DNA of 64,000 nt. Origin: a virus. Within the stretch, counting starts at the first letter, position 1. Each line of letters opens with the position of its first letter. The position numbers and the translations under genes are program-made. Location of the stretch: positions 10,950-74,949 of the IMG/VR virus record IMGVR_UViG_3300045988_118866, one strand, 5' to 3'. Of the stretch, positions 24,354 through 45,344 are shown in pieces. The notes beneath the pieces are model-generated. The model was not told the origin of the DNA and searched no databases. It worked only from the letters and a program-made list of their open reading frames with translations.

Positions 24354-24947
24354 ATGTCTAAACCTTTACTTTTTCAACAGCTGCTTAGCGCGACTGAAAA
24401 TAATCAAACTAACGTAACTATTGGTGATGCTACAATTAATAAAGATGGTACAATAACTGGTACAATATTACAAACTACTGGTGCTACCAATAAAGCTGGT
24501 AAATTTGCTACCATAAATAACGGGTAGATTTATTATCGTGAACCAGCAGAAGTGTTAGCTGATATTGGAGCGGCTGCTGAAACTTCTATCAATAATTTGT
24601 CTACTGAAATTACTACTTTAAAGACTTCTGATTCAACCTTAAAAGATAATTTAACTGACCTTGAAACGAATTATTAGACTTTAAATAATTCAGTATCTTC
24701 TTTAAAAACAGCAAATACAACTACTGCTTCAAAATTAGATACTTTACAAACTCAACAAACTAGTTTCTCAGAGGATTTAAAAACATTAAGTAATACTGTA
24801 TCTACTACATTAACAAAAGTTTTCTCTATAGGAACAACTGCTCCAACAGACAAAAAACTCCTTTGGATAGATACTACATCAAATTCTGGATTAAAATATT
24901 ATAATGGTTCCGCTTGGGTTACGATGCCCGTCTGTTGGGGCGACTAA
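24354..24947 (+). CDS. tail fiber-like protein (2 TAG) sharing C-terminal module LLWIDTTSNSGLKYY
   Basis: RBS AAGAAAGGAG. The ORF is open to TAA 24945-24947 only when TAG is read through. Confidence 0.55.
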
Positions 24948-24950
24948 TTT

Positions 24951-25445
24951 ATGGAACACCGCATTAAAATTTTTTTCTTTTTAGATCAAGAAGATTTTGG
25001 TGATAAACGTAATTGTTCTTTAACGAGTATAACATCTATTTGTTATACTCGTTTCAGAAATCCTTCTATTAAAGAAATCTATAATATAGTCGAATCTATT
25101 GGAAAAAAATATTGTTATAATGATAAACGAGGAACTAATCCTTTGCTTATTAAAAATATTTTTAATAAATCTTTAGAGTATTTTTCTAAACAAAAATGTC
25201 AAACTAGTTCAAAGTATTTAAAAGAAATTGGGTATAATTTTACTACAATTAAAAATTTAATTGATATGAATAAACCTGTTATTCTATCTTTCTGGAAATG
25301 TGAAAAATATTCTAATCATACAATTACAATAATTGGATATGATGATAAAACACAAGATTTAATAATTGCGGATAACTGGTCCAAAAGGCCATAGAAAATT
25401 AATTATAAAAATATCTCAACAATTTCTTCAATAAACTACTTTTAA
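24951..25445 (+). CDS. papain-like cysteine peptidase (C39-like/BtrH-like) family protein
   Basis: Motifs ILSFWKCEKYSNHTITIIGYDD...LIIADNW. TAG at 25392 extends the ORF to TAA 25443-25445. Confidence 0.45.
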
Positions 25446-25453
25446 AAATTTTT

Positions 25454-25492
25454 TGACATTTTTAAAAAAATAATATATAATATATATAGAAA
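25454..25492 (+). promoter_or_regulatory. conserved promoter upstream of interrupted tRNA
   Basis: ttgacatttttaaaaaaataatatataat. Confidence 0.55.
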
Positions 25493-25645
25493 GTTGAGAG
25501 AGAAAGATTTTAAAAATTTTTTCTCTTATACTTTTTCTTTCGGCAACGAACTCTTTAATTGATAAGTTAAAGAGATTGGGAGAAAGAACGCGGGAACTGC
25601 GTTAGTGCCAATATGCTGGATTAGCTCAGCTGGTAGAGCAATTGA

Positions 25646-26123
25646 TTTGTCAATCAAACTCAATGAAAAAAATATGGAATTAACTTCTAAGCAAAAGGGA
25701 AATTTAACCGAGCTCCAATGTTTAACAGCCTTTATAGAGCAAGGTTGTGGAGTTAGTATTCCGTATGGAGATAACTCTAAATATGATTTCATTGCAGATG
25801 TGAATGGCGCTCTATTAAAAATTCAAGTCAAAACTTCTTCTCTTAAAGATGAAAATGCAATTCAATTTTCATGTAGAACCACTCATGTAAATTGCGCAGG
25901 AGTAAAAAATGAGAGATATTCAAGTGATGACATTGATTTCTTTGCAACTTATTGGAACAATCAGTGTTATTTAGTTCCTGTTGCAGAAAGTTCAGTTACG
26001 AAAACTTTACGATTTGCTCCTCCAAAAAGTGGGCAAATGAAGGGAATTAGTTTTGCCTCTGAGTATGAGTTAGCAAAACAATTATCCAAGTTAGGAGGAA
26101 GTAATTGAGCATTGATAGATAAA
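25646..26123 (+). mobile_element. intron-like insertion in tRNA anticodon loop (group I intron candidate) with PD-(D/E)xK endonuclease ORF
   Basis: Bounded by tRNA exon halves with complementary acceptor and anticodon stems. Taking a 5' exon ending in U and an insert ending in G places the junction at tt|...g|ataaa. Confidence 0.5.
25674..26108 (+). CDS. intron-encoded PD-(D/E)xK (Hjc-like) endonuclease candidate, inside interrupted tRNA
   Basis: ORF lies wholly between the two tRNA exons. Motif YDFIADVNGALLKIQVK. Confidence 0.5.
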   Translation: MELTSKQKGNLTELQCLTAFIEQGCGVSIPYGDNSKYDFIADVNGALLKIQVKTSSLKDENAIQFSCRTTHVNCAGVKNERYSSDDIDFFATYWNNQCYLVPVAESSVTKTLRFAPPKSGQMKGISFASEYELAKQLSKLGGSN

Positions 26124-26203
26124 TCAATAGGTCGGGGGTTCGAATCCGTCATCCAGCTCCATTAATCAAAAGATTAAAATAAATGTGTAAAAGGTGTAAA
26201 ATT

Positions 26204-26554
26204 ATGAATTATTCTCTGGACAAGTATAAGTTTTATGAGTACAATGATCCCAAGGGTAAGAAGACCGTGAGCGCGGTTTCCACGTATGCCGGTCGGACAG
26301 TCAAAGGCTATGCTAAGTGTGATCCTCGTGATAGTTTTAATGTTGAAAATGGCAAGAAGCTCGCGGCCGCGCGTTGTAATGCGAAGGTTTCCGCAAAGCG
26401 CATGAAGCGCGCTGAGTATAAGATGAAGGAAGCTCAGACTCTTCTTGATCAGGCTCAGGCTCATTACAACAAGATGGTGAATTATTTCAACGATGCTTCT
26501 CGTGATAAGTCTTTTGCCGAGAATGAGGTAAATTGTCTCCTTAAGGAGATGTAA
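26204..26554 (+). CDS. hypothetical protein, paralog of 50161 gene
   Basis: Shared segment AKCDPRD.../AKCHPDD.... A hairpin terminator at 26560-26590 follows. Confidence 0.5.
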   Translation: MNYSLDKYKFYEYNDPKGKKTVSAVSTYAGRTVKGYAKCDPRDSFNVENGKKLAAARCNAKVSAKRMKRAEYKMKEAQTLLDQAQAHYNKMVNYFNDASRDKSFAENEVNCLLKEM

Positions 26555-26559
26555 TAAAT

Positions 26560-26590
26560 AAGGAGAAGATTTTCTTCTCCTTTATATGCG
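26560..26590 (+). terminator. rho-independent terminator
   Basis: aaggagaagattttcttctcctttatat. Confidence 0.6.
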
Positions 26591-26677
26591 GGCGTGGTAG
26601 AGTTTGGCTTATTACACCGGTCTTGAAAACCGGCGAGGGGCAACCCTCCAGAGGTTCGAATCCTCTCGCCCGCGCCA
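26588..26677 (+). tRNA. tRNA-Ser(TGA), type II
   Basis: gcgggcg/cgcccgc, anticodon ccggt-ctTGAaa-accgg, long variable arm, T-arm agagg-ttcgaat-cctct, CCA. Confidence 0.75.
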
Positions 26678-26702
26678 ACTAATTTAATAAGGAGGATATT
26701 AT

Positions 26703-26996
26703 ATGAAATCTAATTCTCGTGCTTATAATCGTGATGTTTCCAAAAGAAAAGCGTTGAGAAAGCGTAGAATCACCAAAGAAGTGTATGGTGATCTTACTCA
26801 TCCTTATTATGATAATTTACATCAATATTCAAAAAATAAAATCCATTGTTCATGTCCTATGTGCTCGGCCAAGAGTAAAAATAGAGGAAAAAGACGTGGA
26901 AAAGCGTGGAATTATTCTCCTACTTATAATTGGAAGATCGCGGATTTGCGTAAATTCAATAAGATGGACATGAGCTGTGAGGACGCGGGCGTGTAA
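26703..26996 (+). CDS. hypothetical basic zinc-finger-like protein (97 aa)
   Basis: RBS AAGGAGG. Motif HCSCPMC. A terminator follows. Confidence 0.5.
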   Translation: MKSNSRAYNRDVSKRKALRKRRITKEVYGDLTHPYYDNLHQYSKNKIHCSCPMCSAKSKNRGKRRGKAWNYSPTYNWKIADLRKFNKMDMSCEDAGV

Positions 26997-27015
26997 AGTA
27001 AAAATACTTTACACC
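26983..27015 (+). terminator. terminator hairpin sharing core with 6190 terminator
   Basis: gcgtgtaaagtaaaaatactttacacc. Confidence 0.55.
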
Positions 27016-27030
27016 AATTTCCGCAATTTT

Positions 27031-27068
27031 TTGACATTTTTAAAAATTTAATATATAATATATATAGA
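27031..27068 (+). promoter_or_regulatory. conserved promoter driving permuted-tRNA cassette 27076
   Basis: ttgacatttttaaaaatttaatatataat. Confidence 0.55.
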
Positions 27069-27075
27069 AAATGAA

Positions 27076-27211
27076 AAAAGACTTTAACAGCAAAAATGGA
27101 CTGTAAATCCGTCGCTGATGCTACGCAGGTTCGAATCCTGCCCTCCCCACCACCATATGGCGGAGGTAGGGAAGTGGTTAAACCCAATGGAACTGAAAAT
27201 AATAAGTCTTG
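27076..27211 (+). ncRNA. candidate permuted tRNA gene #3, Tyr(GTA)-like (3' portion 27096-27152 with intact anticodon arm; 5' portion 27160-27191)
   Basis: 3' portion atgga-ctGTAaa-tccgt-12 nt variable-gcagg-ttcgaat-cctgc-cctcccc-a-cca. After the linker ccatatg comes gcggagg-ta-ggg-aagtggttaaa-ccc-a-atgga. The stem strand atgga is present in both portions. Flanks are aaaagactt and aagtcttg. Confidence 0.45.
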
Positions 27212-27230
27212 TTTTTGAATTAAAAATTTT

Positions 27231-27270
27231 TTGACATTTTATAAAAAATATTATATAATATTTATATAAA
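27231..27270 (+). promoter_or_regulatory. conserved promoter driving cassette 27277 and tRNA-Leu(TAA)
   Basis: ttgacattttataaaaaatattatataat. Confidence 0.55.
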
Positions 27271-27276
27271 ATGAAG

Positions 27277-27344
27277 AAAGACCTTATCAGCAAATATAAG
27301 AATAAAATCTTTACCAAACTTCAAGGATGTTATTTGAGGTCTTG
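27277..27344 (+). other. leader/trailer cassette (no tRNA) after promoter 27231; explains spurious ORF 27271..27498
   Basis: aaagacct-tatcagcaaatataag ... gaggtcttg. Confidence 0.45.
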
Positions 27345-27451
27345 TAAATATTATCTAAAGCCCGTGAGAGAAAAAATAGACGGACTGAGCGTCAGTAATT
27401 CTGGCTGGAACTTGAAGAGGAAGTTGTTGGCTGACATCAAAGCTGATATCT

Positions 27452-27539
27452 GCGGGCGTGGCGGAACTGGCAGACGCCTGGGACTTAAAATCCCATGAGG
27501 TGAACCCTCGTACGAGTTCGAGTCTCGTCGCCCGCACCA
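27452..27539 (+). tRNA. tRNA-Leu(TAA), type II
   Basis: gcgggcg/cgcccgc, D-arm gcggaactggcagacgc, anticodon tggga-ctTAAaa-tccca, long variable arm, T-arm acgag-ttcgagt-ctcgt, CCA. Confidence 0.75.
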
Positions 27540-37343: not shown

Positions 37344-38117
37344 AACATTATTTTATCACAGGTTAGCGACACTCACGGACGGACAGCCGAACGCTTAGAA
37401 ACTTTAAGATCTAAGCATCCCGATCTTAGGCCAGCGGAAACCGCATTAATTATTCTTGGTGATGCCGGATTTAATTTTTATCTTAATAAATCTGACTATA
37501 AGAATAAAAAGCAAGTAAATGATATGGGGTATATTGTTTATTGTCTTCGTGGAAATCATGAAGAGCGTCCTGAGAATATTTCTGGAATGACTATTATGGT
37601 AGATCATGATATCCATGGTGAAGTATATGTAGAATCCATGTTTAGCAATATCCGTTATCTTATGGATGGTAATGTTTATGATTTTGGCATTTTTACTACT
37701 CTTTGTATTGGTGGAGCTTATTCTGTTGATAAGTGGTATCGTCTTCAAAATTTTCGTCAATCTAATGGTTGGTGTGGATGGTTTGCGGAAGAGCAATTAT
37801 TTCCTGATGAAATGAATTACATTACTAAGAAAGTAAAAAATAATTACTTTGATTTTGTCCTTACTCATACTTGTCCTCGCTATTGGGAACCTACCGATCT
37901 TTTTATTAATGGGATCGACCAATCTGCTGTTGATAAATCTATGGAAGATTGGCTTGATAAATTAAAAGATCAAATTAATTTTACAGTTTGGTGTTTTGGC
38001 CATTATCATGCGGACCGCACTGAGGATGAAGGGGTAGAACAATATTTTTATGATATTGAAGAATTAACAAGTATTTGGGATAGAACTTTAGATCACATCC
38101 CTCGGAATTTAGAATAA
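37344..38117 (+). CDS. calcineurin-like metallophosphoesterase; start codon unclear
   Basis: Conserved motifs SDTHG (37386-37400), ILGDAGF and GNHE are in frame upstream of the first ATG at 37524. There is no in-frame ATG, GTG or TTG between the stops at 37338-37343 and 37524. Confidence 0.55.
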   Translation, partial: NIILSQVSDTHGRTAERLETLRSKHPDLRPAETALIILGDAGFNFYLNKSDYKNKKQVNDMGYIVYCLRGNHEERPENISGMTIMVDHDIHGEVYVESMFSNIRYLMDGNVYDFGIFTTLCIGGAYSVDKWYRLQNFRQSNGWCGWFAEEQLFPDEMNYITKKVKNNYFDFVLTHTCPRYWEPTDLFINGIDQSAVDKSMEDWLDKLKDQINFTVWCFGHYHADRTEDEGVEQYFYDIEELTSIWDRTLDHIPRNLE

Positions 38118-38134
38118 AATGTAGAAATGTAGAA

Positions 38135-38410
38135 ATGTGTTATTCAATTATATTATCAAAATCGGCTAAGAAGTTTTATGATAAAACCAATGAAAAAACT
38201 AAAAGAAATTTAGAAAGAACATTTTTAACCTTATCGCCAGAGGTAGATGAAAAGGTTAAAAATGTTGATAAAAAACGCGATCAATCAAATACTTATCGCA
38301 GACGATTAGGTCATTATCGAGTTGTTTATCAGAAACAAGGAGATATTCTTTTAATAACTCATTTGGATACAAAAACTAATTTCAAGTATAAAAAAACTGG
38401 TTGTTTTTAA
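38135..38410 (+). CDS. hypothetical basic protein (91 aa)
   Basis: ORF only. Confidence 0.45.
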   Translation: MCYSIILSKSAKKFYDKTNEKTKRNLERTFLTLSPEVDEKVKNVDKKRDQSNTYRRRLGHYRVVYQKQGDILLITHLDTKTNFKYKKTGCF

Positions 38411-38415
38411 CTTTA

Positions 38416-38455
38416 TTGATTTTATATAAAAAATATAATATAATATTTATAGAAA
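38416..38455 (+). promoter_or_regulatory. conserved promoter (wHTH and RNA ligase operon)
   Basis: ttgattttatataaaaaatataatataat. Confidence 0.5.
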
Positions 38456-38477
38456 GTTAAGAAAGGAAGAAAAAATT

Positions 38478-38837
38478 ATGCCAGGAAGGTCTAGAACAAC
38501 TACTCGTCCAGAAGTTAATGCAGATTATAAGTTTAGAATTTTGGATGTGTTAAATAACACAGATGGTTCTATGACTCTCGATGAAATTCGTATGGGAGAT
38601 ATGATTTTGCGTCCATTGTCTAATCAGAAGATTAGCCGTTTGATTAGTGATCTTATTGATTTTGGTTTGGTCCAAAAGGGTAAATCTAAGAGTCTTGGTC
38701 GAATGATGTATAAAGCAACATCAAAAATGCGAGAACAGGGGTATGAAGTTGATGACCCCGTAGATTTTGAGTATGGTTATGCTACTCATAATTGGGAATT
38801 AGAGGAAGAGAAAAGAATTAGAGAAAGGATTGATTAA
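38478..38837 (+). CDS. winged-helix DNA-binding protein (119 aa)
   Basis: Promoter box plus RBS AAGAAAGGAAG. Motif DEIRMGDMILRPLSNQKISRLISDLIDFGLV. Confidence 0.55.
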   Translation: MPGRSRTTTRPEVNADYKFRILDVLNNTDGSMTLDEIRMGDMILRPLSNQKISRLISDLIDFGLVQKGKSKSLGRMMYKATSKMREQGYEVDDPVDFEYGYATHNWELEEEKRIRERID

Positions 38838-38839
38838 TT

Positions 38840-40216
38840 ATGTCTTATAATGCATATGTTTGTAAAATCAAGAATTTGCGGAAGCACCCGAATGCCGATC
38901 GGTTGATGCTCGGTGAATGTTTCGGTAATACTGTGTGTGTTGATACTTCTTATGAAGTTGACGAACTTGGTATTTATTTCCCTACTGACGGGCAGGTAAG
39001 TCCTGAATTTGCTGAAAATAATAACCTTTTGCGCAAGAAAGATGAAAATGGTAAGAGCATTGGTGGTTATATGGACCCCATGAAGCGCAATATTACCACT
39101 ATTCGTTTGCGCGGAGAGAAGAGCGATGGTCTTTTCCTCCATCTTAATTGCGTTTCTTATACTGGGGTTCTTCTTAGCGAGCTGACCGAGGGTTTCGCTT
39201 TCACTACTCTGAATGGACATGAGATTTGTAAGAAGTATATTCCTATGCGTCAGAATCGTCAGGGTCATGTAAGTGAGGGAAATCATGTCCGTAAAAAGAA
39301 AGCTCCTATTGCTCCTCTGTTTATCGAGCATGCTGATACGGAGCAGTTGGCTTATAATCTTGATGCTTTTAAGCCGAATGACCTTATCGAAATTACTTTG
39401 AAGATGCATGGCACTTCTCAGCGCACAGGTTATCTTCCTATGTTTAAGGGTTATAAGAAGACTCTTTTGGATAGAATTATGCGCCGTGATGGCACTCCTA
39501 TTTATGAATATGGATATGTATCTGGTACTCGTCGCACTGTGCTAAATGACTGGGAGGGTGGCTTCTATGGTTCTAATATGTTCCGTAAGAAGCACGCAGA
39601 TTTCTTTGAGGGTAAGCTCCATAAGGGTGAGGAAGTCTATTATGAGGTTGTTGGTTTTACCGATGAGGGTATGCCTATTATGTCTTCTGCTTCTAATAGA
39701 AAGCTGAATGATAAGGATTTTCTTAAGAAGTATGGTGAAACTACTACCTTCTCTTATGGTTGCTCTTGCACTGGTTATTATACCTATGGTGATGGTAGCT
39801 ATGATATCCTCCCCAAATCTGACTTCTATGTTTATCGCATGACTATGACTAATGAAGATGGGGATGTTGTTGAATATACTCCTGATTTCATGCGCTATCG
39901 TTGTGAGCAGATGGGTTGTAAGTGTGTTCCTGTTCTGTGGAGAGGTTTTCTTGATGACACTACTGATTGGAATGATGCAGGTATGACTGCTGGCGAGCAG
40001 GTTAAAGAAATCGCTGAGCGATATTATGATGGTCCTGATCCGATCGGTAAGACTCATGTCCGTGAGGGTGTTGTAATTCGTATTCTTAATCGTCCGAAAT
40101 TCTGTGCTTATAAGCATAAGAATTTTGCCTTTAAGTGTCTTGAAGGCTTGGTAAAAGCAGAAGAGACCGCGCCCGATATGGAAGAGGCCGAAGAGGTACA
40201 AAATGACGAAACTTGA
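38840..40216 (+). CDS. RNA ligase (Rnl2/Rnl5-like, motif I KxHG) fused to N-terminal tRNA-binding (Myf/EMAP/CsaA-like) domain
   Basis: N-terminus KNLRKHPNADRLMLGECFGNTVCVD matches the hPnADkL OB-fold tRNA-binding signature. Motif I ITLKMHGTSQR, motif IV REGVVIRIL, motif V YKHKNF. Codon usage suggests high expression. Confidence 0.75.
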   Translation: MSYNAYVCKIKNLRKHPNADRLMLGECFGNTVCVDTSYEVDELGIYFPTDGQVSPEFAENNNLLRKKDENGKSIGGYMDPMKRNITTIRLRGEKSDGLFLHLNCVSYTGVLLSELTEGFAFTTLNGHEICKKYIPMRQNRQGHVSEGNHVRKKKAPIAPLFIEHADTEQLAYNLDAFKPNDLIEITLKMHGTSQRTGYLPMFKGYKKTLLDRIMRRDGTPIYEYGYVSGTRRTVLNDWEGGFYGSNMFRKKHADFFEGKLHKGEEVYYEVVGFTDEGMPIMSSASNRKLNDKDFLKKYGETTTFSYGCSCTGYYTYGDGSYDILPKSDFYVYRMTMTNEDGDVVEYTPDFMRYRCEQMGCKCVPVLWRGFLDDTTDWNDAGMTAGEQVKEIAERYYDGPDPIGKTHVREGVVIRILNRPKFCAYKHKNFAFKCLEGLVKAEETAPDMEEAEEVQNDET

Positions 40217-40394
40217 TGAATTGATGGAACACTTATCGTTAGACGCAGAGTGGGCTTCCGCTAATGAGTGGGAAGCCCCTATCTGCCTTTATGACGATAT
40301 TCTTGATGCTCTTACTATTTTAAGAGTTATAACGATTCTTAAAAGAATCGGAACATTAGACCAAATTGAATATGTCTTGGAGGATTACCTATGA
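40203..40394 (+). CDS. hypothetical protein (63 aa)
   Basis: ORF overlapping the ligase stop. Confidence 0.4.
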   Translation: MTKLDELMEHLSLDAEWASANEWEAPICLYDDILDALTILRVITILKRIGTLDQIEYVLEDYL

Positions 40395-40789
40395 CTGATG
40401 AAGCTGTAAGTCAAGCTAAAACTGATACATATGAAATTAGAGAACGAATTCCTGTTGCTCTTTGGGATAAAGTAAGTGAAGATTTAACACGAGATCAATG
40501 TTATTCTTATTGGCAGTATTGTCTTGAGTGCGTTCAACAGATGGCTGACGCTTGGGAAGAAGTTAATGGTGAAAATCTTATTTGGGTTCCAGGCCATTAT
40601 GAAAAGAAAGAAAAATCCAAAAGCAAAGATGTTCCAATTACTGAAGTAGTTAAGAAATGTGAGTGTTATCATTTAAGAGATGATAAAACCGCAGAATGTT
40701 GGGGCACTAAGGAACGTGAAATTTGTTCTTGTGGTGGCGATTCAAGATTTTGTAATTTTTATCATAACGGAGATAGGATTAGTGGTTAA
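40391..40789 (+). CDS. hypothetical Cys-rich protein (132 aa)
   Basis: ORF only. Confidence 0.5.
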   Translation: MTDEAVSQAKTDTYEIRERIPVALWDKVSEDLTRDQCYSYWQYCLECVQQMADAWEEVNGENLIWVPGHYEKKEKSKSKDVPITEVVKKCECYHLRDDKTAECWGTKEREICSCGGDSRFCNFYHNGDRISG

Positions 40790-41279
40790 ACAAATTACTT
40801 ATTATAAAAATAAAAGTCTATTAGACTTACCTCCTAAAATTGTAATTTGTCATCAGGTAAATTGCCAAGGCGTTATGGGCGCGGGTCTTGCCAAACAAAT
40901 CCGTGCTCGTTGGCCTGAAGTATATGAGGATTATAAAAAGACCATTGAAAATGCAGAAGCACAAGTCGCTCATTTAGAAAATCCACCTGATGACATTTTA
41001 CTTGGCACGGTTGCGTGCACTACCACAGTAGACGGTCATAGAGTAGCAAGTTTATTCGCTCAATATGACTGTGGATATGGATCACGCCGATATACTAATT
41101 ATGAGGCATTTGCTAATTGCTTAGAAAATCTAAATACATTAGTTCCTACCTATATCCCAATTGCTTTTCCTTATAAAATTGGGTGTGGTCTTGATGGAGG
41201 AGACTGGGATATTATTCAATTAATGATTAGAAAAATTCTCCATCACGAAGATGTTTATATCTGTCAGTTGGAGGATTGA
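40782..41279 (+). CDS. macro-domain (ADP-ribose binding/processing) protein; GTG start inferred
   Basis: KIVICHQVNCQGVMGAGLAKQI is the macro-domain N-terminal signature. The ORF track starts at 40680 inside the upstream gene. Confidence 0.6.
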   Translation: MVKQITYYKNKSLLDLPPKIVICHQVNCQGVMGAGLAKQIRARWPEVYEDYKKTIENAEAQVAHLENPPDDILLGTVACTTTVDGHRVASLFAQYDCGYGSRRYTNYEAFANCLENLNTLVPTYIPIAFPYKIGCGLDGGDWDIIQLMIRKILHHEDVYICQLED

Positions 41280-41280
41280 A

Positions 41281-41787
41281 ATGAGCGTTGTCGCTGCTAA
41301 AGTTTATGATGATAGAATTGTAATGAGTGCTGATAGTATTCTTACTAATGGCTATGAGAAGGAGCCTAATGTTAATTTTGCTAAGATTGCTAAGATTAAC
41401 GATATGATTCTTGGTGGAGTTGGTTATGGTGATGAACAAAGTCTAATGTGGCTTTATATGGAAAATCATCAACCAGTTGAAGCTAATGAACGAGAAATTC
41501 TTAATTACATTATTGAATTTTCAAAATGGAAAAATACTCTTATCGGTGATGGATTTCTAAAAAATGAATTTCTTATTGCTTATAAAGGACATCTTTTTCA
41601 CATTTGTAAGTTTATGGTAAGAGAGATCAAAGATTATTTTGCTATTGGAGCGGGCGCTCCTTATGCAACAACTGCACTATATTTAAAACATGATCCAGAA
41701 GAAGCGGTAAAAGTTGCGTGTGATATTTGTTGCTTTGTAAGTGAGCCAATTAAGACTTTCATTCAAGAAAAAGGAGATAAGGAGTAA
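41281..41787 (+). CDS. HslV/proteasome-beta-like Ntn-hydrolase family protein
   Basis: MSVVAAKVYDDRIVMSADS..., AIGAGAPYATTAL and VKVACDICCFVSE parallel the HslV motifs AIGSGGPYA and ALDIAGDICIYTN. Confidence 0.55.
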   Translation: MSVVAAKVYDDRIVMSADSILTNGYEKEPNVNFAKIAKINDMILGGVGYGDEQSLMWLYMENHQPVEANEREILNYIIEFSKWKNTLIGDGFLKNEFLIAYKGHLFHICKFMVREIKDYFAIGAGAPYATTALYLKHDPEEAVKVACDICCFVSEPIKTFIQEKGDKE

Positions 41788-41801
41788 TTCTTATCTCCTT
41801 T

Positions 41802-41843
41802 TTGATTTTTTTAAAAAATTATTATATAATATTTATATAAAAA
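41802..41843 (+). promoter_or_regulatory. conserved promoter
   Basis: ttgatttttttaaaaaattattatataat. Confidence 0.5.
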
Positions 41844-41859
41844 GAAAGGTGATATTATT

Positions 41860-42087
41860 ATGAATTATATCGTTTCTAAAGAAAGACTTCTTGAACTTCT
41901 TAAAGCTGAAAATGAACTTAATGTTCTTGAAGGGGACGGCGTTGATAACTGGACATGGTATATGGAAGGCCGAAGACAATATCTTAAAGAAGGCGCTGAA
42001 ATGTATGGTGTCAATATTGATGACAATGAAGATTTTGATTTTGAAGATTTAGCCGAATTAGATCTTCAGAACTTTGAGGAAATTTAA
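41860..42087 (+). CDS. hypothetical acidic protein (75 aa)
   Basis: Promoter plus RBS AAAGGTG. Confidence 0.5.
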   Translation: MNYIVSKERLLELLKAENELNVLEGDGVDNWTWYMEGRRQYLKEGAEMYGVNIDDNEDFDFEDLAELDLQNFEEI

Positions 42088-42531
42088 ATGATTGATAAAT
42101 TTGAAGGAGATTTTGCTTTTTTAAGCAACTTTTTTTATTCTCCAATTACAATAGAAGGAAAAAGATATCTTACGGTAGAAAACTATTTTCAGGCAATGAA
42201 AGCAGCGAACCCCGGAGATGCAGAAGAAATTAGATTGGCTCCCACTCCTGGCAAATCCAAGAGGTTAGGAAGACATTGTGTAATTCGTAAAGACTGGGAA
42301 GACATTAAAGAAGATGTTATGTATAAAGGTGTAAAAGCTAAATTTACACAAAACCCAACTTTGCGGACTGCCCTTGAAAAAACCGGAGAAGTCTGGCTTG
42401 AAGAAGGAAATACTTGGTGCGATAATACATGGGGTGTATGTCATTGTATTCGATGCCAAGACACTATGGCACATAATAAACTTGGAAAAATTCTAATGCG
42501 AGTAAGAAAAGAATTAAAAGAGGGAAATTAA
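42088..42531 (+). CDS. NADAR (YbiA-like, DUF1768) domain protein
   Basis: FLSNFFYSPITIEGKRYLTVENYFQAMK signature. Confidence 0.65.
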   Translation: MIDKFEGDFAFLSNFFYSPITIEGKRYLTVENYFQAMKAANPGDAEEIRLAPTPGKSKRLGRHCVIRKDWEDIKEDVMYKGVKAKFTQNPTLRTALEKTGEVWLEEGNTWCDNTWGVCHCIRCQDTMAHNKLGKILMRVRKELKEGN

Positions 42532-42729
42532 ATGTATTATTTGTTTTTAGCTTTGTTTTGGGCTTGTTTTGCCATTTGGTGTTTTTGCTTTATCCAGTGG
42601 ATTCAATGTACTTTTATTAAAAAGTATAAAGACACTGACAAAATGCTATATTGGAATATTTGGATTTTAGCAAGTTGTTTGGGAGTAAATATTTGTAATT
42701 TATTTATGAAACTTACAAGAGTGGGATAA
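42532..42729 (+). CDS. small membrane protein (65 aa)
   Basis: Hydrophobic, W/C-rich. A terminator follows. Confidence 0.45.
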   Translation: MYYLFLALFWACFAIWCFCFIQWIQCTFIKKYKDTDKMLYWNIWILASCLGVNICNLFMKLTRVG

Positions 42730-42739
42730 TTTCTCACTC

Positions 42740-42778
42740 TTGATTTTTTTATAAAAATATATTATAATATATATATAA
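42740..42778 (+). promoter_or_regulatory. conserved promoter (phosphatase operon)
   Basis: ttgatttttttataaaaatatattataat. Confidence 0.5.
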
Positions 42779-42800
42779 ATTAAGAAAGGATTGATATTTT

Positions 42801-43520
42801 ATGAATAAAACATACGCGGTGAGTGATATTCATGGTATGAAACCTCTTTGGGACCAAATTATGAAATACCTCGACCCAAGTGATACTCTTTATTGTCTGG
42901 GTGATTGTGCGGACCGCGGAAATGATGGCTGGGAAATCATTAAAGATGCTATCGCCGATAAAAGAGTTATTTATCTTAAAGGTAATCATGAAGATATGTT
43001 ATTTGAAGCTATGAAAGATTATCTTAAAGATGAAAATTTTAGTCATGCTTATGCTCTTCTTTGTAATAACAGTGGAGCAAAAACTTTTGAAGATTGGCAA
43101 ATTGGAGAACATGCTAATCTTGGATGGTATCAAGAACTCGCTAAACTTCCTCTTCGAGAAAACTATATGAATAAGAATAATCAAATTATTCTTCTTTCTC
43201 ATGCTGGATTCACTTTTGGAGATATGCCTAATCGTTATGATTTGATTTGGAGTCGAAATCATTTTTATGACCCGTGGCCTGAAGATAAAACTGCGGACCG
43301 CAGTTTTTGTATTCATGGCCATACGCCTTTTCTGCTAATGCCTAACTATGATCCTTATATTGCAGTAGGTAAAAGCTATAAAGATTTTGATTTGGAAAAT
43401 ATGAATCATTTTTGGTATTGTGATGGACATAAGTGCGATATTGATAATGGTTCTTTTGCTACTGGAAAAACTTGTCTCATTGACCTTGACACATTTGAGA
43501 CTATTGAATTTACTATGTAA
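42801..43520 (+). CDS. Ser/Thr-phosphatase-like metallophosphoesterase (lambda-PPase/ApaH family)
   Basis: SDIHG, GDCADRG, GNHE. Confidence 0.7.
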   Translation: MNKTYAVSDIHGMKPLWDQIMKYLDPSDTLYCLGDCADRGNDGWEIIKDAIADKRVIYLKGNHEDMLFEAMKDYLKDENFSHAYALLCNNSGAKTFEDWQIGEHANLGWYQELAKLPLRENYMNKNNQIILLSHAGFTFGDMPNRYDLIWSRNHFYDPWPEDKTADRSFCIHGHTPFLLMPNYDPYIAVGKSYKDFDLENMNHFWYCDGHKCDIDNGSFATGKTCLIDLDTFETIEFTM

Positions 43521-43531
43521 GGAGAAAAACA

Positions 43532-43810
43532 ATGGTTAGAGGTATGAAATATCATATTTATGAAACAAAAGAGGGTGTTAATCCACTCTGTTGGGATGAT
43601 AAAGCTCTTGAATTTGACACTATTGAATCTGCTTGTAGATTTTTATGTGATCTTTTTGAAATTGTAAAAGATACTGGTGAAGCAGAAATTTATGAAAATG
43701 CTACTGTTAAACATGATATACTTTATTATGATGGTGGCTATCTTGATGCTACAAATTTAACTATTGAGTATGACGCTGAGGAATGTGAAAATCGTTTAAA
43801 GGAAGTATAA
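43532..43810 (+). CDS. hypothetical protein (92 aa)
   Basis: RBS AAGGAGAAAAACA. Confidence 0.5.
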   Translation: MVRGMKYHIYETKEGVNPLCWDDKALEFDTIESACRFLCDLFEIVKDTGEAEIYENATVKHDILYYDGGYLDATNLTIEYDAEECENRLKEV

Positions 43811-43818
43811 ATTCTTTA

Positions 43819-43857
43819 TTGATTTTTATAAAAAAATATAATATAATATTTATAGAA
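43819..43857 (+). promoter_or_regulatory. conserved promoter
   Basis: ttgatttttataaaaaaatataatataat. Confidence 0.5.
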
Positions 43858-43881
43858 AGTTAAGAAAGGAATTGATAAAAA

Positions 43882-44073
43882 ATGGACGATTATGATGATA
43901 TTTCTATGGCAATCGCGGGTGTAGCTCTTATGTTTATTGAAGTAGCTATTATGCTATTTATTTGGAATACCGCTCTTATTCCTTGGTTTTGCTTTCCAAG
44001 CATTACTTATTGGCAGATGTTTGTCATTAAGATTTTTATTAATATCGCGGTTCCTTCTCGCTCAAAGGAGTAA
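43882..44073 (+). CDS. small membrane protein (63 aa)
   Basis: Promoter box. Two hydrophobic helices. Confidence 0.45.
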   Translation: MDDYDDISMAIAGVALMFIEVAIMLFIWNTALIPWFCFPSITYWQMFVIKIFINIAVPSRSKE

Positions 44074-44078
44074 TTCAA

Positions 44079-44354
44079 ATGGCATCTTATGAAAACCATG
44101 ATTTTTATTGTATGAATTGTGGACGAAAAGGAATTCCTTTATCTCGTCGAGTAAGTCTTCAACATGGTAAATTTCATCGTAAAAAGTTATATTGTATTTA
44201 TTGCAAAGAAGAAGTAAATCATATCGAATGTAGAACTCCAGAAGAAGTAAAAGAGTTTAAAGAAAATTTTGAGAATGGGGTGTATAAAGATGAAGCAAAA
44301 GAATCTTTGGATTATGTCCGGGGTGCCAGCATCGGGCAAAAGCACGTTCCTTAA
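44079..44354 (+). CDS. zinc-ribbon protein (91 aa); 3' end overlaps kinase gene
   Basis: CMNCGRK...CIYCKEE. The overlap makes its true stop uncertain. Confidence 0.4.
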   Translation: MASYENHDFYCMNCGRKGIPLSRRVSLQHGKFHRKKLYCIYCKEEVNHIECRTPEEVKEFKENFENGVYKDEAKESLDYVRGASIGQKHVP

Positions 44355-44799
44355 AAATCGTTGGCCTCAATGCGGTTGTGTTGTTTCTCGTGATGCTCTT
44401 CGTTTTCAAATGTTAAATGATGATGAAAGCTATTTCGCCAAAGAAGAAAGTGTATGGCATGCTTTTGTTAAAGCAATCACTCTTTCTTTAAAAGACTATG
44501 ATGATGTGTATGCGGATGCTACGCATCTTGGACCCGGCTCCCGCAAGAAACTTCTTAAAGCAATTAACGCAAAAGGATATGCAAATCTTAATGTGAATGT
44601 TATTTATTTTAATGTTCCTGTTGAAGTTTGCATTGAGCGCAATAAACAGCGTGATGGTCGAGCGCAAGTTCCAGAAGAAGTAATTCGGAATATGGCAAAT
44701 TCTTTTACTCCTCCCACTTTTAAAGAATATATTAAATATAACCTTATCCAAGAGGTTAATGAAAAAGGAGAAGTGATTCATACATGGCAATCTTTTTAA
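44290..44799 (+). CDS. P-loop polynucleotide-kinase-like protein (5'-OH kinase candidate)
   Basis: MKQKNLWIMSGVPASGKST Walker A. The track starts 7 codons earlier. Confidence 0.6.
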   Translation: MKQKNLWIMSGVPASGKSTFLKNRWPQCGCVVSRDALRFQMLNDDESYFAKEESVWHAFVKAITLSLKDYDDVYADATHLGPGSRKKLLKAINAKGYANLNVNVIYFNVPVEVCIERNKQRDGRAQVPEEVIRNMANSFTPPTFKEYIKYNLIQEVNEKGEVIHTWQSF

Positions 44800-45344
44800 C
44801 CAGTGATATGCACTTTGGACATGATCGAGAATTTATTTGGAAAGCTCGTGGTTATTCTTCAATTAAAGAAATGAATGAAGAATATGTCGAGAAATGGAAT
44901 AGCATCATTTCTGATGAAGATGACGTTTATATTCTTGGTGATCTAATGCTTGGAGAACCTTCTAATATTGAATATATTAAACGTCTTAAGGGTAAATTCC
45001 ATATTGTATTTGGCAACCATGATACAGCAACTCGGCAGAAGCTTTATGCGGATTTGCCTAATGTTGTTGAAATGGATTGGGCGATTATGCTAAATTATCG
45101 TAAATACCATTTCTTTATGACCCATTTCCCTTGTATGACTGGCAATCTTGAAAGAGAAAATCTTCATCAAATGACTTTGAATCTTTACGGTCATACTCAT
45201 CAAACCACTAATTTCTTTGAAGATCGACCTTATATGTATCATGTAGGTGTTGATTCTCACCATGGCTATCCCATTAATCTTGATGTAATCATTGATGCTA
45301 TGAAAGCCAAAGTTGAGGAATGTAAATCATTTCTTGATGAATGA
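44784..45344 (+). CDS. calcineurin-like metallophosphoesterase (2',3'-phosphatase candidate)
   Basis: DMHFGH, GDLMLG, GNHD, GHTH. Confidence 0.65.
   Translation: MAIFLTSDMHFGHDREFIWKARGYSSIKEMNEEYVEKWNSIISDEDDVYILGDLMLGEPSNIEYIKRLKGKFHIVFGNHDTATRQKLYADLPNVVEMDWAIMLNYRKYHFFMTHFPCMTGNLERENLHQMTLNLYGHTHQTTNFFEDRPYMYHVGVDSHHGYPINLDVIIDAMKAKVEECKSFLDE

Follow-up and report, generated by a model that had tools for sequence, protein, structure and literature searches.

What is the element that interrupts the anticodon loop of a phage tRNA gene, and could a functional tRNA still be made from such a gene? The question is raised by a tRNA-Thr(UGU) gene in the IMG/VR virus record IMGVR_UViG_3300045988_118866, of which we analysed a stretch of 64,000 nucleotides (nt; positions 10,950 to 74,949 of the record). 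This stretch is called the window in the following, and coordinates refer to it unless another locus is named. The insert carries an open reading frame (ORF) for a homing endonuclease, and the same arrangement recurs at related phage loci. Based on the comparison of these loci we lean, with modest confidence, towards the view that the insert is a mobile endonuclease-encoding intron that lacks a ribozyme of its own and would be cut out by a protein, with its exons being rejoined by a ligase.

A tRNA-Thr gene interrupted in its anticodon loop

The original prediction, which was made from the letters of the window, had recognised that an intron-like element interrupts the anticodon loop of a tRNA gene. 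This view is borne out by ARAGORN, which calls a tRNA over exactly 25615-26161 when introns are allowed, and by 73 related loci. The acceptor stem (gctggat, 25615-25621, with atccagc, 26152-26158), the D arm (gctc-agctggta-gagc, within exon 1 and followed by A26) and the anticodon stem (attga, 25641-25645, with tcaat, 26124-26128) are all present in the sequence as predicted. The T arm (ggggg-ttcgaat-ccgtc), which had been described as canonical, is also in place, but it contains one G51·G63 mismatch and is thus nearly, not fully, canonical. Exon 1 ends in the loop bases TT and the anticodon TGT (25648-25650). Exon 2 begins with A37 and A38 and continues through tcaat, the variable loop aggtc, the T arm and the 3' strand of the acceptor stem to the discriminator T and a CCA end that is encoded in the gene. 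In its default mode ARAGORN reports 25 other tRNAs in the window but misses the split gene, and none of the 25 is a tRNA-Thr(UGU). The insert of about 470 bp is likewise real, although its bounds had to be refined from 25646-26123 to 25651-26121. Its 471 nt consist of 23 nt of 5' non-coding sequence, a 435-nt ORF and 13 nt past the stop codon.

Removal of the insert in silico produces the predicted junction GATTTGT/AATCAAT (in longer form, GAGCAATTGATTTGT/AATCAATAGGTCG). The resulting anticodon loop, TTTGTAA, has 7 nt, with U33, A37 and the anticodon UGU, and ARAGORN calls the spliced sequence as tRNA-Thr(tgt). Since this loop, the blastn matches of the 5' half to annotated phage tRNA-Thr genes and the intact tRNA-Thr(tgt) genes at the syntenic site of sister phages agree, the tRNA can be assigned to Thr(UGU). 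The anticodon, which had initially been left open, is thereby settled by tRNA-only criteria, by synteny and by ARAGORN on the spliced sequence, with the junction at 36/37. The alternative anticodons ATA and TTA arise because the last three bases of the intron complement the anticodon. A junction at 33/34, which would give AUA or ACA, was rejected because it agrees neither with the tRNA body nor with the intact tRNA-Thr(tgt) genes at the syntenic site. Other "introns" that ARAGORN proposes with the -i option in the window and in the related loci are artefacts joining neighbouring tRNAs; Rfam shows complete tRNAs there.

Public data hold 608 proteins homologous to the encoded endonuclease. One metagenome scan yielded 234 relatives, of which 80 were fetched, and 73 non-identical loci (cited by L numbers where needed) were analysed for the junction. 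When the junction is placed by tRNA rules alone, i.e. the position of the T loop, a 5-bp anticodon stem, U33, a purine at position 37 and the D stem, the insert lies between nt 36 and 37 in all 73 loci. The spliced forms are called as ordinary tRNAs by ARAGORN in every case (58 Thr(tgt), 6 Asn(gtt), 3 Lys(ttt), 2 Thr(ggt), 2 Val(tac), 1 Met(cat) and 1 Ile(gat)). All seven pairs of the acceptor stem are formed in 64 of the 73 loci, and 49 different acceptor strands occur. The same design was found by hand in genes for tRNA-Ser(GCU) (L009), tRNA-Thr(AGU) (L100) and tRNA-Pro(UGG) (L085). Overall, interrupted genes for Thr, Asn, Lys, Val, Ile, Met, Ser and Pro tRNAs are present in large rumen and gut phages. 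As a sequence pattern, an architecture that recurs in 73 non-identical loci with 49 acceptor strands is far beyond chance. Because standard tRNA finders overlook split genes, the tRNA repertoires of phages are under-counted, whether or not the inserts are spliced.

The endonucleases of the family have diverged down to 45% identity, and their clades follow the anticodon type and the subtype of the RNA rod described below. One phage carries three interrupted tRNA genes within 3.4 kb (L008, 2941-6312), one for Thr(UGU) and two for Lys(UUU), and the three endonucleases belong to different clades. The tRNA-Pro(UGG) genes of L085 and L087 (1440-2289) share the rod design and have a 775-nt insert. 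Their ORF encodes the PD-(D/E)xK domain plus a C-terminal extension with a CxxC...CxxC pattern and a helix-turn-helix-like segment. A different arrangement is seen in L007 (2885-3470), where a free-standing homologue with 58% identity has its own upstream Shine-Dalgarno (SD) sequence and is located between an intact tRNA-Thr(tgt) gene and an orphan 3' tRNA fragment comprising the T arm and acceptor strand. Judged by this gene order, it looks like a resolved or decayed former intron. With regard to the hosts, related phage contigs were binned with genomes of Acutalibacteraceae, Oscillospiraceae and Ruminococcus (Oscillospirales). Since a murein amidase is also encoded in the window, the hosts are bacterial, and they likely belong to the Oscillospirales.

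The rod formed by exon and intron ends

The ends of exons and intron can pair into one continuous helix, the rod, which extends from tRNA nt 27 outwards, includes the U33·A37 and 32·38 pairs and holds the ORF in its terminal loop. In the window, the anticodon TGT (25648-25650) pairs with ata (26119-26121), which corresponds to intron positions -3 to -1. The helix continues with caatcaa (25651-25657, +1 to +7) and ttgatag (26112-26118, -10 to -4), which pair with one A·A mismatch. Following an internal loop, in which an unpaired A (25658, +8) is opposite ca (26110-26111), helix 4 is formed by ctcaat (25659-25664, +9 to +14) and attgag (26104-26109, -18 to -13). For the 547-nt precursor (z = -4.15), the minimum free energy (MFE) fold and the centroid fold both contain the portion from the anticodon stem through helix 3.

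Covariation was assessed with 67 distinct fixed-length constructs around both junctions, in an alignment that is gap-free except for one misplaced row. Standard pairs account for 86.8% of the cells, compared with 28-41% in controls in which the 3' strand was slid by 1-3 columns. Changes on both sides of a pair were counted in 370 cells versus 54-80 in the slid controls and 117 in shuffles, and the covariation score is 0.612 versus 0.06-0.13 in the slid controls. None of 500 shuffles matched any of the observed rod measures. Individual pairs illustrate the pattern: +1/-4 is U-A in 40 and C-G in 25 of the 67 sequences, +3/-6 is formed in all of them by six pair types, and +11/-15 is U-A in 34 and C-G in 26-27. 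The pairs between the anticodon and intron positions -1 to -3 are kept in 64-67 of the 67 loci. Accordingly, these intron positions differ between tRNA types and read ata or aca for UGU (Thr), aaa for UUU (Lys), aac for GUU (Asn) and gta for UAC (Val). A hand tally of the pair table gave about 98 G·U versus about 12 A·C pairs. Since G·U is frequent and A·C rare, the rod is selected on the sense transcript and not on double-stranded DNA. On the same grounds, a DNA cruciform and an excision at the DNA level are ruled out.

The rod has a pseudo-two-fold symmetry, with 7 bp (5+2) on the tRNA side, 3 bp in the centre and 7 bp (2+5) on the intron side. The inner pairs 33·37 and +1·-4 are formed in 66 of the 67 sequences each, the outer pairs 32·38 and +2·-5 in 31 and 45, respectively. 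In all 67 ungapped sequences the intron arm measures 7 bp up to the 1x2 internal loop, which occupies the spot mirroring the 26/44 junction of the tRNA. Conserved bases in this loop are +8 A (57/67), -11 A (61/67) and -12 C (45/67). The dyad relates the two junctions, 36/+1 and -1/37, to each other; they are separated by 3 bp and have a 3' stagger. A Lys/Asn subfamily (L008:4299-4841, L084, L088, L094, L095 and L080) has UGAC and GCUGAU in place of the CAAAYU and RGCAUUG of the internal loop, and its facing GA dinucleotides recall the tandem sheared G·A pairs of kink-turn or box C/D motifs. The CUGAUG string in this subfamily lacks the three-helix context of a hammerhead ribozyme, which was rejected.

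The rod also accounts for the 17-nt imperfect direct repeat at the insert boundaries. The repeat is present as predicted, but its reading as a homing footprint does not hold, since the family as a whole does not conserve it. It results incidentally from the stem attga/tcaat, which in this allele happens to resemble the intron helix atcaa/ttgat, and it is gone in relatives with other stems, e.g. gctgc/gcagc. A target-site duplication can be dismissed as well, for a duplication by staggered cuts would copy the anticodon directly, not inverted.

Does the insert belong to a known class of introns? The original prediction had implied an analogy to group I introns, and the endonuclease family is indeed the same as in the group I introns of cyanobacterial tRNA-fMet genes (PMC13011429). 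The 5' exon ends in U, and the pseudo-symmetric helix bearing the junctions recalls the logic of the archaeal-type bulge-helix-bulge. The group I analogy nevertheless fails on several points. Bacterial tRNA group I introns are 184-894 bp long, and those with an endonuclease exceed 500 bp (PMC13011429), whereas 435 of the 471 nt are ORF in the present case and only 36 nt are non-coding. Cyanobacterial tRNA-fMet introns carrying PF11645 are located at 33/34 (PMC13011429). Covariance models can pick up the conserved P3-P9 core of group I introns. A permissive Rfam scan of 24500-27500 (E up to 10) found no group I or II intron or any other intron or ribozyme family, its sole match being a weak tRNA at 25615-25693, and a scan of 14 related loci at gathering thresholds found tRNAs only and no intron. 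The last intron base in the window is A and not G; in the family as a whole this base complements nt 34 (TA in 53 and GC in 8 of 67 sequences). In 65 of 67 sequences the partner of U36 is A at -3, not a guide G. Finally, a codon alignment of 62 sequences shows free variation at four-fold sites throughout the ORF, with an entropy of about 1.4-1.9 bits where 2 bits would be the maximum. Because synonymous sites are unconstrained, no ribozyme is hidden in the coding sequence. The missing Rfam match, the 36 nt of non-coding sequence, the lack of a terminal G and the lack of synonymous constraint led us to reject a group I intron. A group II intron was rejected because the insert starts with caatc and ends with gata (instead of 5' GUGYG and 3' AY), has a PD-(D/E)xK ORF where a reverse transcriptase would be usual and gave no Rfam match. 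The canonical bulge-helix-bulge has its splice sites in two bulges of 3 nt that are separated by 4 bp. In no register do the junctions fall in such bulges; bulges of this size are missing altogether, the helix between the junctions has 3 bp, and the site is 36/37. The hosts, moreover, are bacterial, and no EndA-like gene was found among the matches listed for the window ORFs scanned. A canonical intron of either type is thus highly improbable.

A self-splicing RNA could still act through a small undescribed catalytic motif made up of the rod, its A/CA loop, the CAAAYU...RGCAUUG segments and the tRNA body, with a chemistry that is possibly reversible via 2',3'-cyclic phosphate ends. Self-sufficiency would benefit a mobile intron that invades many phages, the conserved unpaired bases (+8 A, -11 A and -12 C) are at a fixed distance from the junctions, and mini-versions of the rod intron without an ORF were not found in IMG/VR. 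However, both junctions lie within a regular covarying helix, whose geometry disfavours in-line attack, the non-coding part amounts to only about 36 nt, and the Lys/Asn subfamily (tgacc...gctgat) has a different internal loop. Known small ribozymes were rejected, as none of the Rfam families matched in the window region at E up to 10, nor did any ribozyme match appear in the 14 related loci. We therefore consider a new ribozyme very unlikely.

Endonuclease, homing and expression of the insert

The ORF of the insert had been likened to PD-(D/E)xK nucleases such as I-Ssp6803I and Hjc, and this assignment is well founded. Its product matches Pfam PF11645 (PDDEXK_5) with E 4.8e-30 and 104.8 bits (cut-off 26.1) and the sequence of the I-Ssp6803I structure (PDB 2OST) with E 1.7e-10. 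The AlphaFold model (pLDDT 81) has 2OST as its best Foldseek hit (TM 0.71, probability 1.00), with archaeal Hjc resolvases next. Residues E13, D38, Q51 and K53, which we take to be the catalytic positions according to the structural work on 2OST, are invariant in 10 diverse and 21 close homologues. In the comparison with 2OST, D38, Q51 and K53 are identical and aligned, and a Q is opposite E13. By sequence and modelled fold, the ORF product is an I-Ssp6803I-type homing endonuclease.

Several ORFs of the family contain premature-looking stops. The stops in question, seen in loci L038, L056, L061, L062, L069, L075, L077, L078 and L091, are TAG codons in frame that coincide with conserved Gln residues, the catalytic Q of the QVK motif among them. 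Because the TAG codons are read as Gln in TAG-recoded phages, the ORFs are intact. Their occurrence at Gln positions indicates TAG-to-Gln recoding, and the endonuclease is probably expressed late. Two suppressor-type tRNAs, with the anticodons CUA and UCA, are encoded in the window (10186-10258 and 11537-11616).

Evidence for mobility comes from the gene downstream of the split tRNA (26207-26551), whose encoded protein is 94-98% identical in ten IMG/VR phages (L222-L231). Nine of these sister phages (L222-L229 and L231) carry an uninterrupted tRNA-Thr(tgt) gene, at about 2379-2455 of each locus, that ends about 46 nt before the downstream gene, and in L230 the tRNA-Thr is absent altogether from the syntenic site. 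The flanks of the sisters align nearly base for base with the window, and the tRNA body occurs in four versions. The exons in the window are mosaic, their outer ends being of the L226/L228 type and their inner part different. Presence/absence polymorphism together with co-conversion tracts is the signature of endonuclease-driven homing. Homing behaviour had been suspected from the outset, and it is confirmed by uninterrupted sites in phages at least 97% identical in the flanking gene and by the converted exons. The endonuclease itself is predicted to cleave DNA; the expected target of the I-Ssp6803I type is the pseudo-palindromic anticodon arm (PMC3384342). On DNA, I-Ssp6803I may leave 3-nt 3' overhangs, a point on which nothing here depends. 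A pattern scan for intact tRNA-Thr genes was uninformative for synteny. The tRNA of L227 resembles the exons of the intron-bearing L022, yet it has no intron and shows an A31·C39 mismatch. It could represent a past intron loss or an endonuclease-resistant variant.

It is important to note how the endonuclease may be translated. Upstream of its ATG there is an A-rich tract and no SD sequence. Instead, 51 of 72 loci have an SD core where the ORF ends, compared with 3.4% of ORF-interior windows and 5 of 72 regions upstream of the ATG. Four of the five loci with a 5' SD lack the 3' SD. The 3' SD is conserved as nucleotides in two reading frames, in which the proteins end in GGSN and KEEVAEH, respectively, and the TGA stop codon of the ORF falls inside the 3' strand of helix 4 of the rod. 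This configuration looks like a ribosome-binding site that is assembled across the rod or after circularisation, and it seems that the endonuclease is translated when the rod is folded or the intron circularised, but not otherwise.

Such a function of the rod lends weight to the strongest rival of splicing, in which the insert is a selfish endonuclease gene and is never removed from the transcript. Carriers would then have a dead tRNA-Thr(UGU), and the rod would serve the element, either by bringing the SD to the ATG or as a stem that stabilises the endonuclease mRNA or permits its processing in the manner of RNase III. Phages can often do without their tRNAs, and the sister phage L230 lives without this one. 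Co-conversion can maintain the complementarity of the exon stems without selection, the split SD/ATG gives the rod a splicing-independent role, and the matches listed for the window ORFs scanned include no splicing enzyme. In addition, L007 has a free-standing gene beside an intact tRNA-Thr and an orphan 3' fragment. Nevertheless, an unspliced parasite leaves unexplained why the last three intron bases track the anticodons of at least eight tRNA types, why the site is invariably 36/37, so that removal gives a 7-nt loop, and why intron arm and anticodon arm are mirror images with a fixed length of 7 bp in 67 sequences. These features count against it because a pure expression device needs none of them. 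It also fits poorly with the fact that all 73 exon pairs are still valid for ARAGORN while the endonucleases have diverged to 45% identity, and with the three interrupted genes within 3.4 kb of L008. We regard an unspliced parasite as unlikely, albeit as a contender to be taken seriously. If it applied, the family would represent a new way of tRNA-gene parasitism by a homing endonuclease, with an unusual split ribosome-binding site.

Candidate route of removal and known systems

For the protein-dependent removal that we favour, the following scenario can be proposed. A dimeric protein endoribonuclease of the host or the phage would measure the symmetric rod and cut both strands. The products would be two stem-loops, each nicked in its loop: the anticodon loop formed by the exons and a mirror-image loop formed by the intron. 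An RNA ligase would then seal the nick in the anticodon loop to give a functional tRNA-Thr; a phage ligase acting with a kinase and a phosphoesterase, or host RtcB, are the candidates. The same ligase may circularise the intron, with the predicted back-spliced junction ...TTGATAGATA/CAATCAAACT... As the rod brings the 3' SD beside the ATG, the endonuclease would be translated only from the folded or excised RNA. It would finally cut the pseudo-palindromic anticodon-arm DNA of intron-less alleles and thereby spread the element.

The features of the locus and the relevant genes are compiled in Table 1. Since a ligase, a kinase and a phosphoesterase are encoded in the window, the capacity to heal and seal an anticodon-loop nick appears to be present. 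Apart from its PHROG match, the candidate ligase has weaker matches to Pfam RNA_ligase (E 7.7e-6, just below the cut-off) and T4 Rnl2 (E 0.025). These genes are part of an RNA-repair-like gene cluster (34518-45341).

Table 1. Features of the split tRNA-Thr locus and candidate genes in the window
Feature	Coordinates	Strand	Basis or remarks
Split tRNA-Thr(UGU) gene	25615-26161	+	547-nt precursor
Exon 1, tRNA nt 1-36	25615-25650	+	blastn to phage tRNA-Thr genes, ARAGORN, family alignment
Exon 2, tRNA nt 37-76	26122-26161	+	ARAGORN on spliced form, alignment of family and intron-less alleles
Intervening sequence, 471 nt, between nt 36 and 37	25651-26121	+	alignment with intron-less alleles L222-L231
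Rod, 5' strand	25641-25664	+	nt 27-31, 32-33, anticodon 34-36, intron +1 to +14; covariation, MFE and centroid fold
Rod, 3' strand	26104-26128	+	intron -18 to -1, A37, A38, nt 39-43; covariation, MFE and centroid fold
PD-(D/E)xK homing endonuclease ORF, 144 aa, I-Ssp6803I family	25674-26108	+	PF11645, 2OST
SD-like AGGAGGA (AAGGAGGAAGUA)	26093-26099	+	3' end of ORF, 5 nt before rod
Predicted sigma-70-type consensus promoter, TTGACA-17 nt-TATAAT	25453-25481	+	12/12 consensus matches; ~130 nt upstream of split tRNA
Candidate sealing enzyme, RNA ligase	38834-40213	+	phrog_968 E 1.4e-64
Candidate end-healing polynucleotide kinase	44251-44796	+	AAA_33 E 4.8e-21; phrog_505 E 1.5e-22
Candidate end-healing phosphoesterase	44763-45341	+	phrog_547 E 3.3e-42
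cREC_REC (cyclic-phosphate-processing receiver domain)	34518-34841		
RlaP-like nucleotidyltransferase	35459-36262		
Metallophosphoesterases	37344-38114, 42795-43517, 44763-45341		
Weak Macro match	40677-41276		
NADAR	42088-42528		
RNA-binding protein phrog_850	28742-30274	+	E 4.5e-135

Other genes in this part of the window include a short endonuclease-like ORF at 37005-37337, which matches phage homing/HNH endonuclease families in their C-terminal part and has a weak resemblance to DUF2726/RAP. Another endonuclease-like gene, an ORF with a GIY-YIG domain, is located at 62613-63035. Long ORFs on both strands overlap at 28730-30295 and 30683-33256, i.e. over stretches of 1.5 kb and 2.5 kb, and the product of 30734-33253 has no PHROG match.

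Several points weigh against a protein-dependent removal. RNA-repair genes are common in tRNA-rich phages and must also occur in the intron-less sisters, so they are not specific to the intron. No endoribonuclease is identified in the window ORFs scanned. In particular, an EndA-like or RNase III gene is absent among the matches listed (25 of 47 Pfam families) for 63 window ORFs; the scans covered the window as a part of the ~190-kb phage, with about 12 window ORFs outside the individual scan. As the exons are co-converted, both strands of a stem come from one parent, and intact stems are no proof of tRNA function. The conservation of the rod could reflect endonuclease expression or mRNA processing instead of splicing. 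Furthermore, we know of no characterised RNA endonuclease that a 3-nt 3' stagger in an unbulged helix would fit: RNase III leaves a stagger of 2 nt, and EndA needs bulges.

In a bolder version of this scenario, the element would be a self-contained, protein-only mobile intron whose rod is an RNA copy of one half and the centre of the pseudo-palindromic DNA target of the endonuclease. The encoded PD-(D/E)xK protein, or a partner recruited by it, would cut both RNA junctions with the same symmetric geometry as on DNA. A ligase of the phage or host would seal the tRNA and circularise the intron, and the circle or the rod-closed RNA would be the sole translatable mRNA of the endonuclease. We offer this proposal as a speculation and rate it as distinctly doubtful. 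If true, it would reveal the first protein-dependent tRNA splicing pathway of the bacterial world and a missing link for the descent of bulge-helix-bulge introns from endonuclease-bearing self-splicing introns.

Full-text searches of the literature retrieved no earlier description of such elements. To our knowledge, bacterial and phage introns are thought to be self-splicing (group I or II), and protein-spliced tRNA introns are deemed a hallmark of archaea and eukaryotes. We regard the element as a mobile endonuclease-bearing tRNA intron whose removal, if protein-dependent, would be new for the bacterial domain. If the insert is spliced, bacteria or phages own an unrecognised cut-and-ligate route of tRNA splicing, the RNA ligase/kinase modules of phages or the RtcB of their hosts gain a concrete role, and the origin of bulge-helix-bulge introns becomes open to experiment.

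When compared with known systems, the phage element shares with the cyanobacterial tRNA-fMet group I intron that encodes I-Ssp6803I the PF11645 family and fold, the insertion in the anticodon loop and a homing-like mobility. In contrast, the cyanobacterial intron is a self-splicing group I ribozyme at 33/34, whereas the phage element is inserted at 36/37 and has a simple rod without a ribozyme core or a terminal G. Its carriers are phages of Firmicutes from gut and rumen, and it interrupts genes for at least eight types of tRNA. The "enigmatic" tRNA introns of Lak megaphages, which include one in tRNA-Thr(TGT), are conserved, unclassified by Rfam and present or absent between related phages, according to the parts of the report considered here (PMC6784885). 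Compared by this description only, they differ in that no endonuclease ORF is mentioned in those parts, and in that the hosts are Prevotella and not Firmicutes (PMC6784885).

The phage element and the archaeal bulge-helix-bulge introns have in common the lack of a ribozyme, the location of both splice sites on one pseudo-two-fold exon-intron helix, a homing endonuclease ORF and a possible circularisation. Some of the archaeal bulge-helix-bulge introns in tRNA and rRNA genes encode LAGLIDADG homing endonucleases and form circular introns. The pseudo-two-fold helix bearing both sites suggests a symmetric protein endonuclease plus a ligase for the phage element, too. Yet the phage element has no 3-nt bulges, a central helix of 3 bp (not 4) and its junction at 36/37 instead of 37/38. 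Its hosts are bacterial, its endonuclease is from a family other than LAGLIDADG, and we know of no splicing endonuclease in bacteria. Finally, two systems of phage T4 may be considered. SegB is a free-standing GIY-YIG homing endonuclease that is encoded among the phage tRNA genes, not inside a tRNA gene. Pnkp and Rnl1, a kinase/phosphatase and an RNA ligase, reseal the anticodon-loop break caused by a host nuclease. The T4 enzymes thus repair damage and remove no insert, but their sealing of the anticodon loop is the same chemistry that we propose for the joining of the exons.

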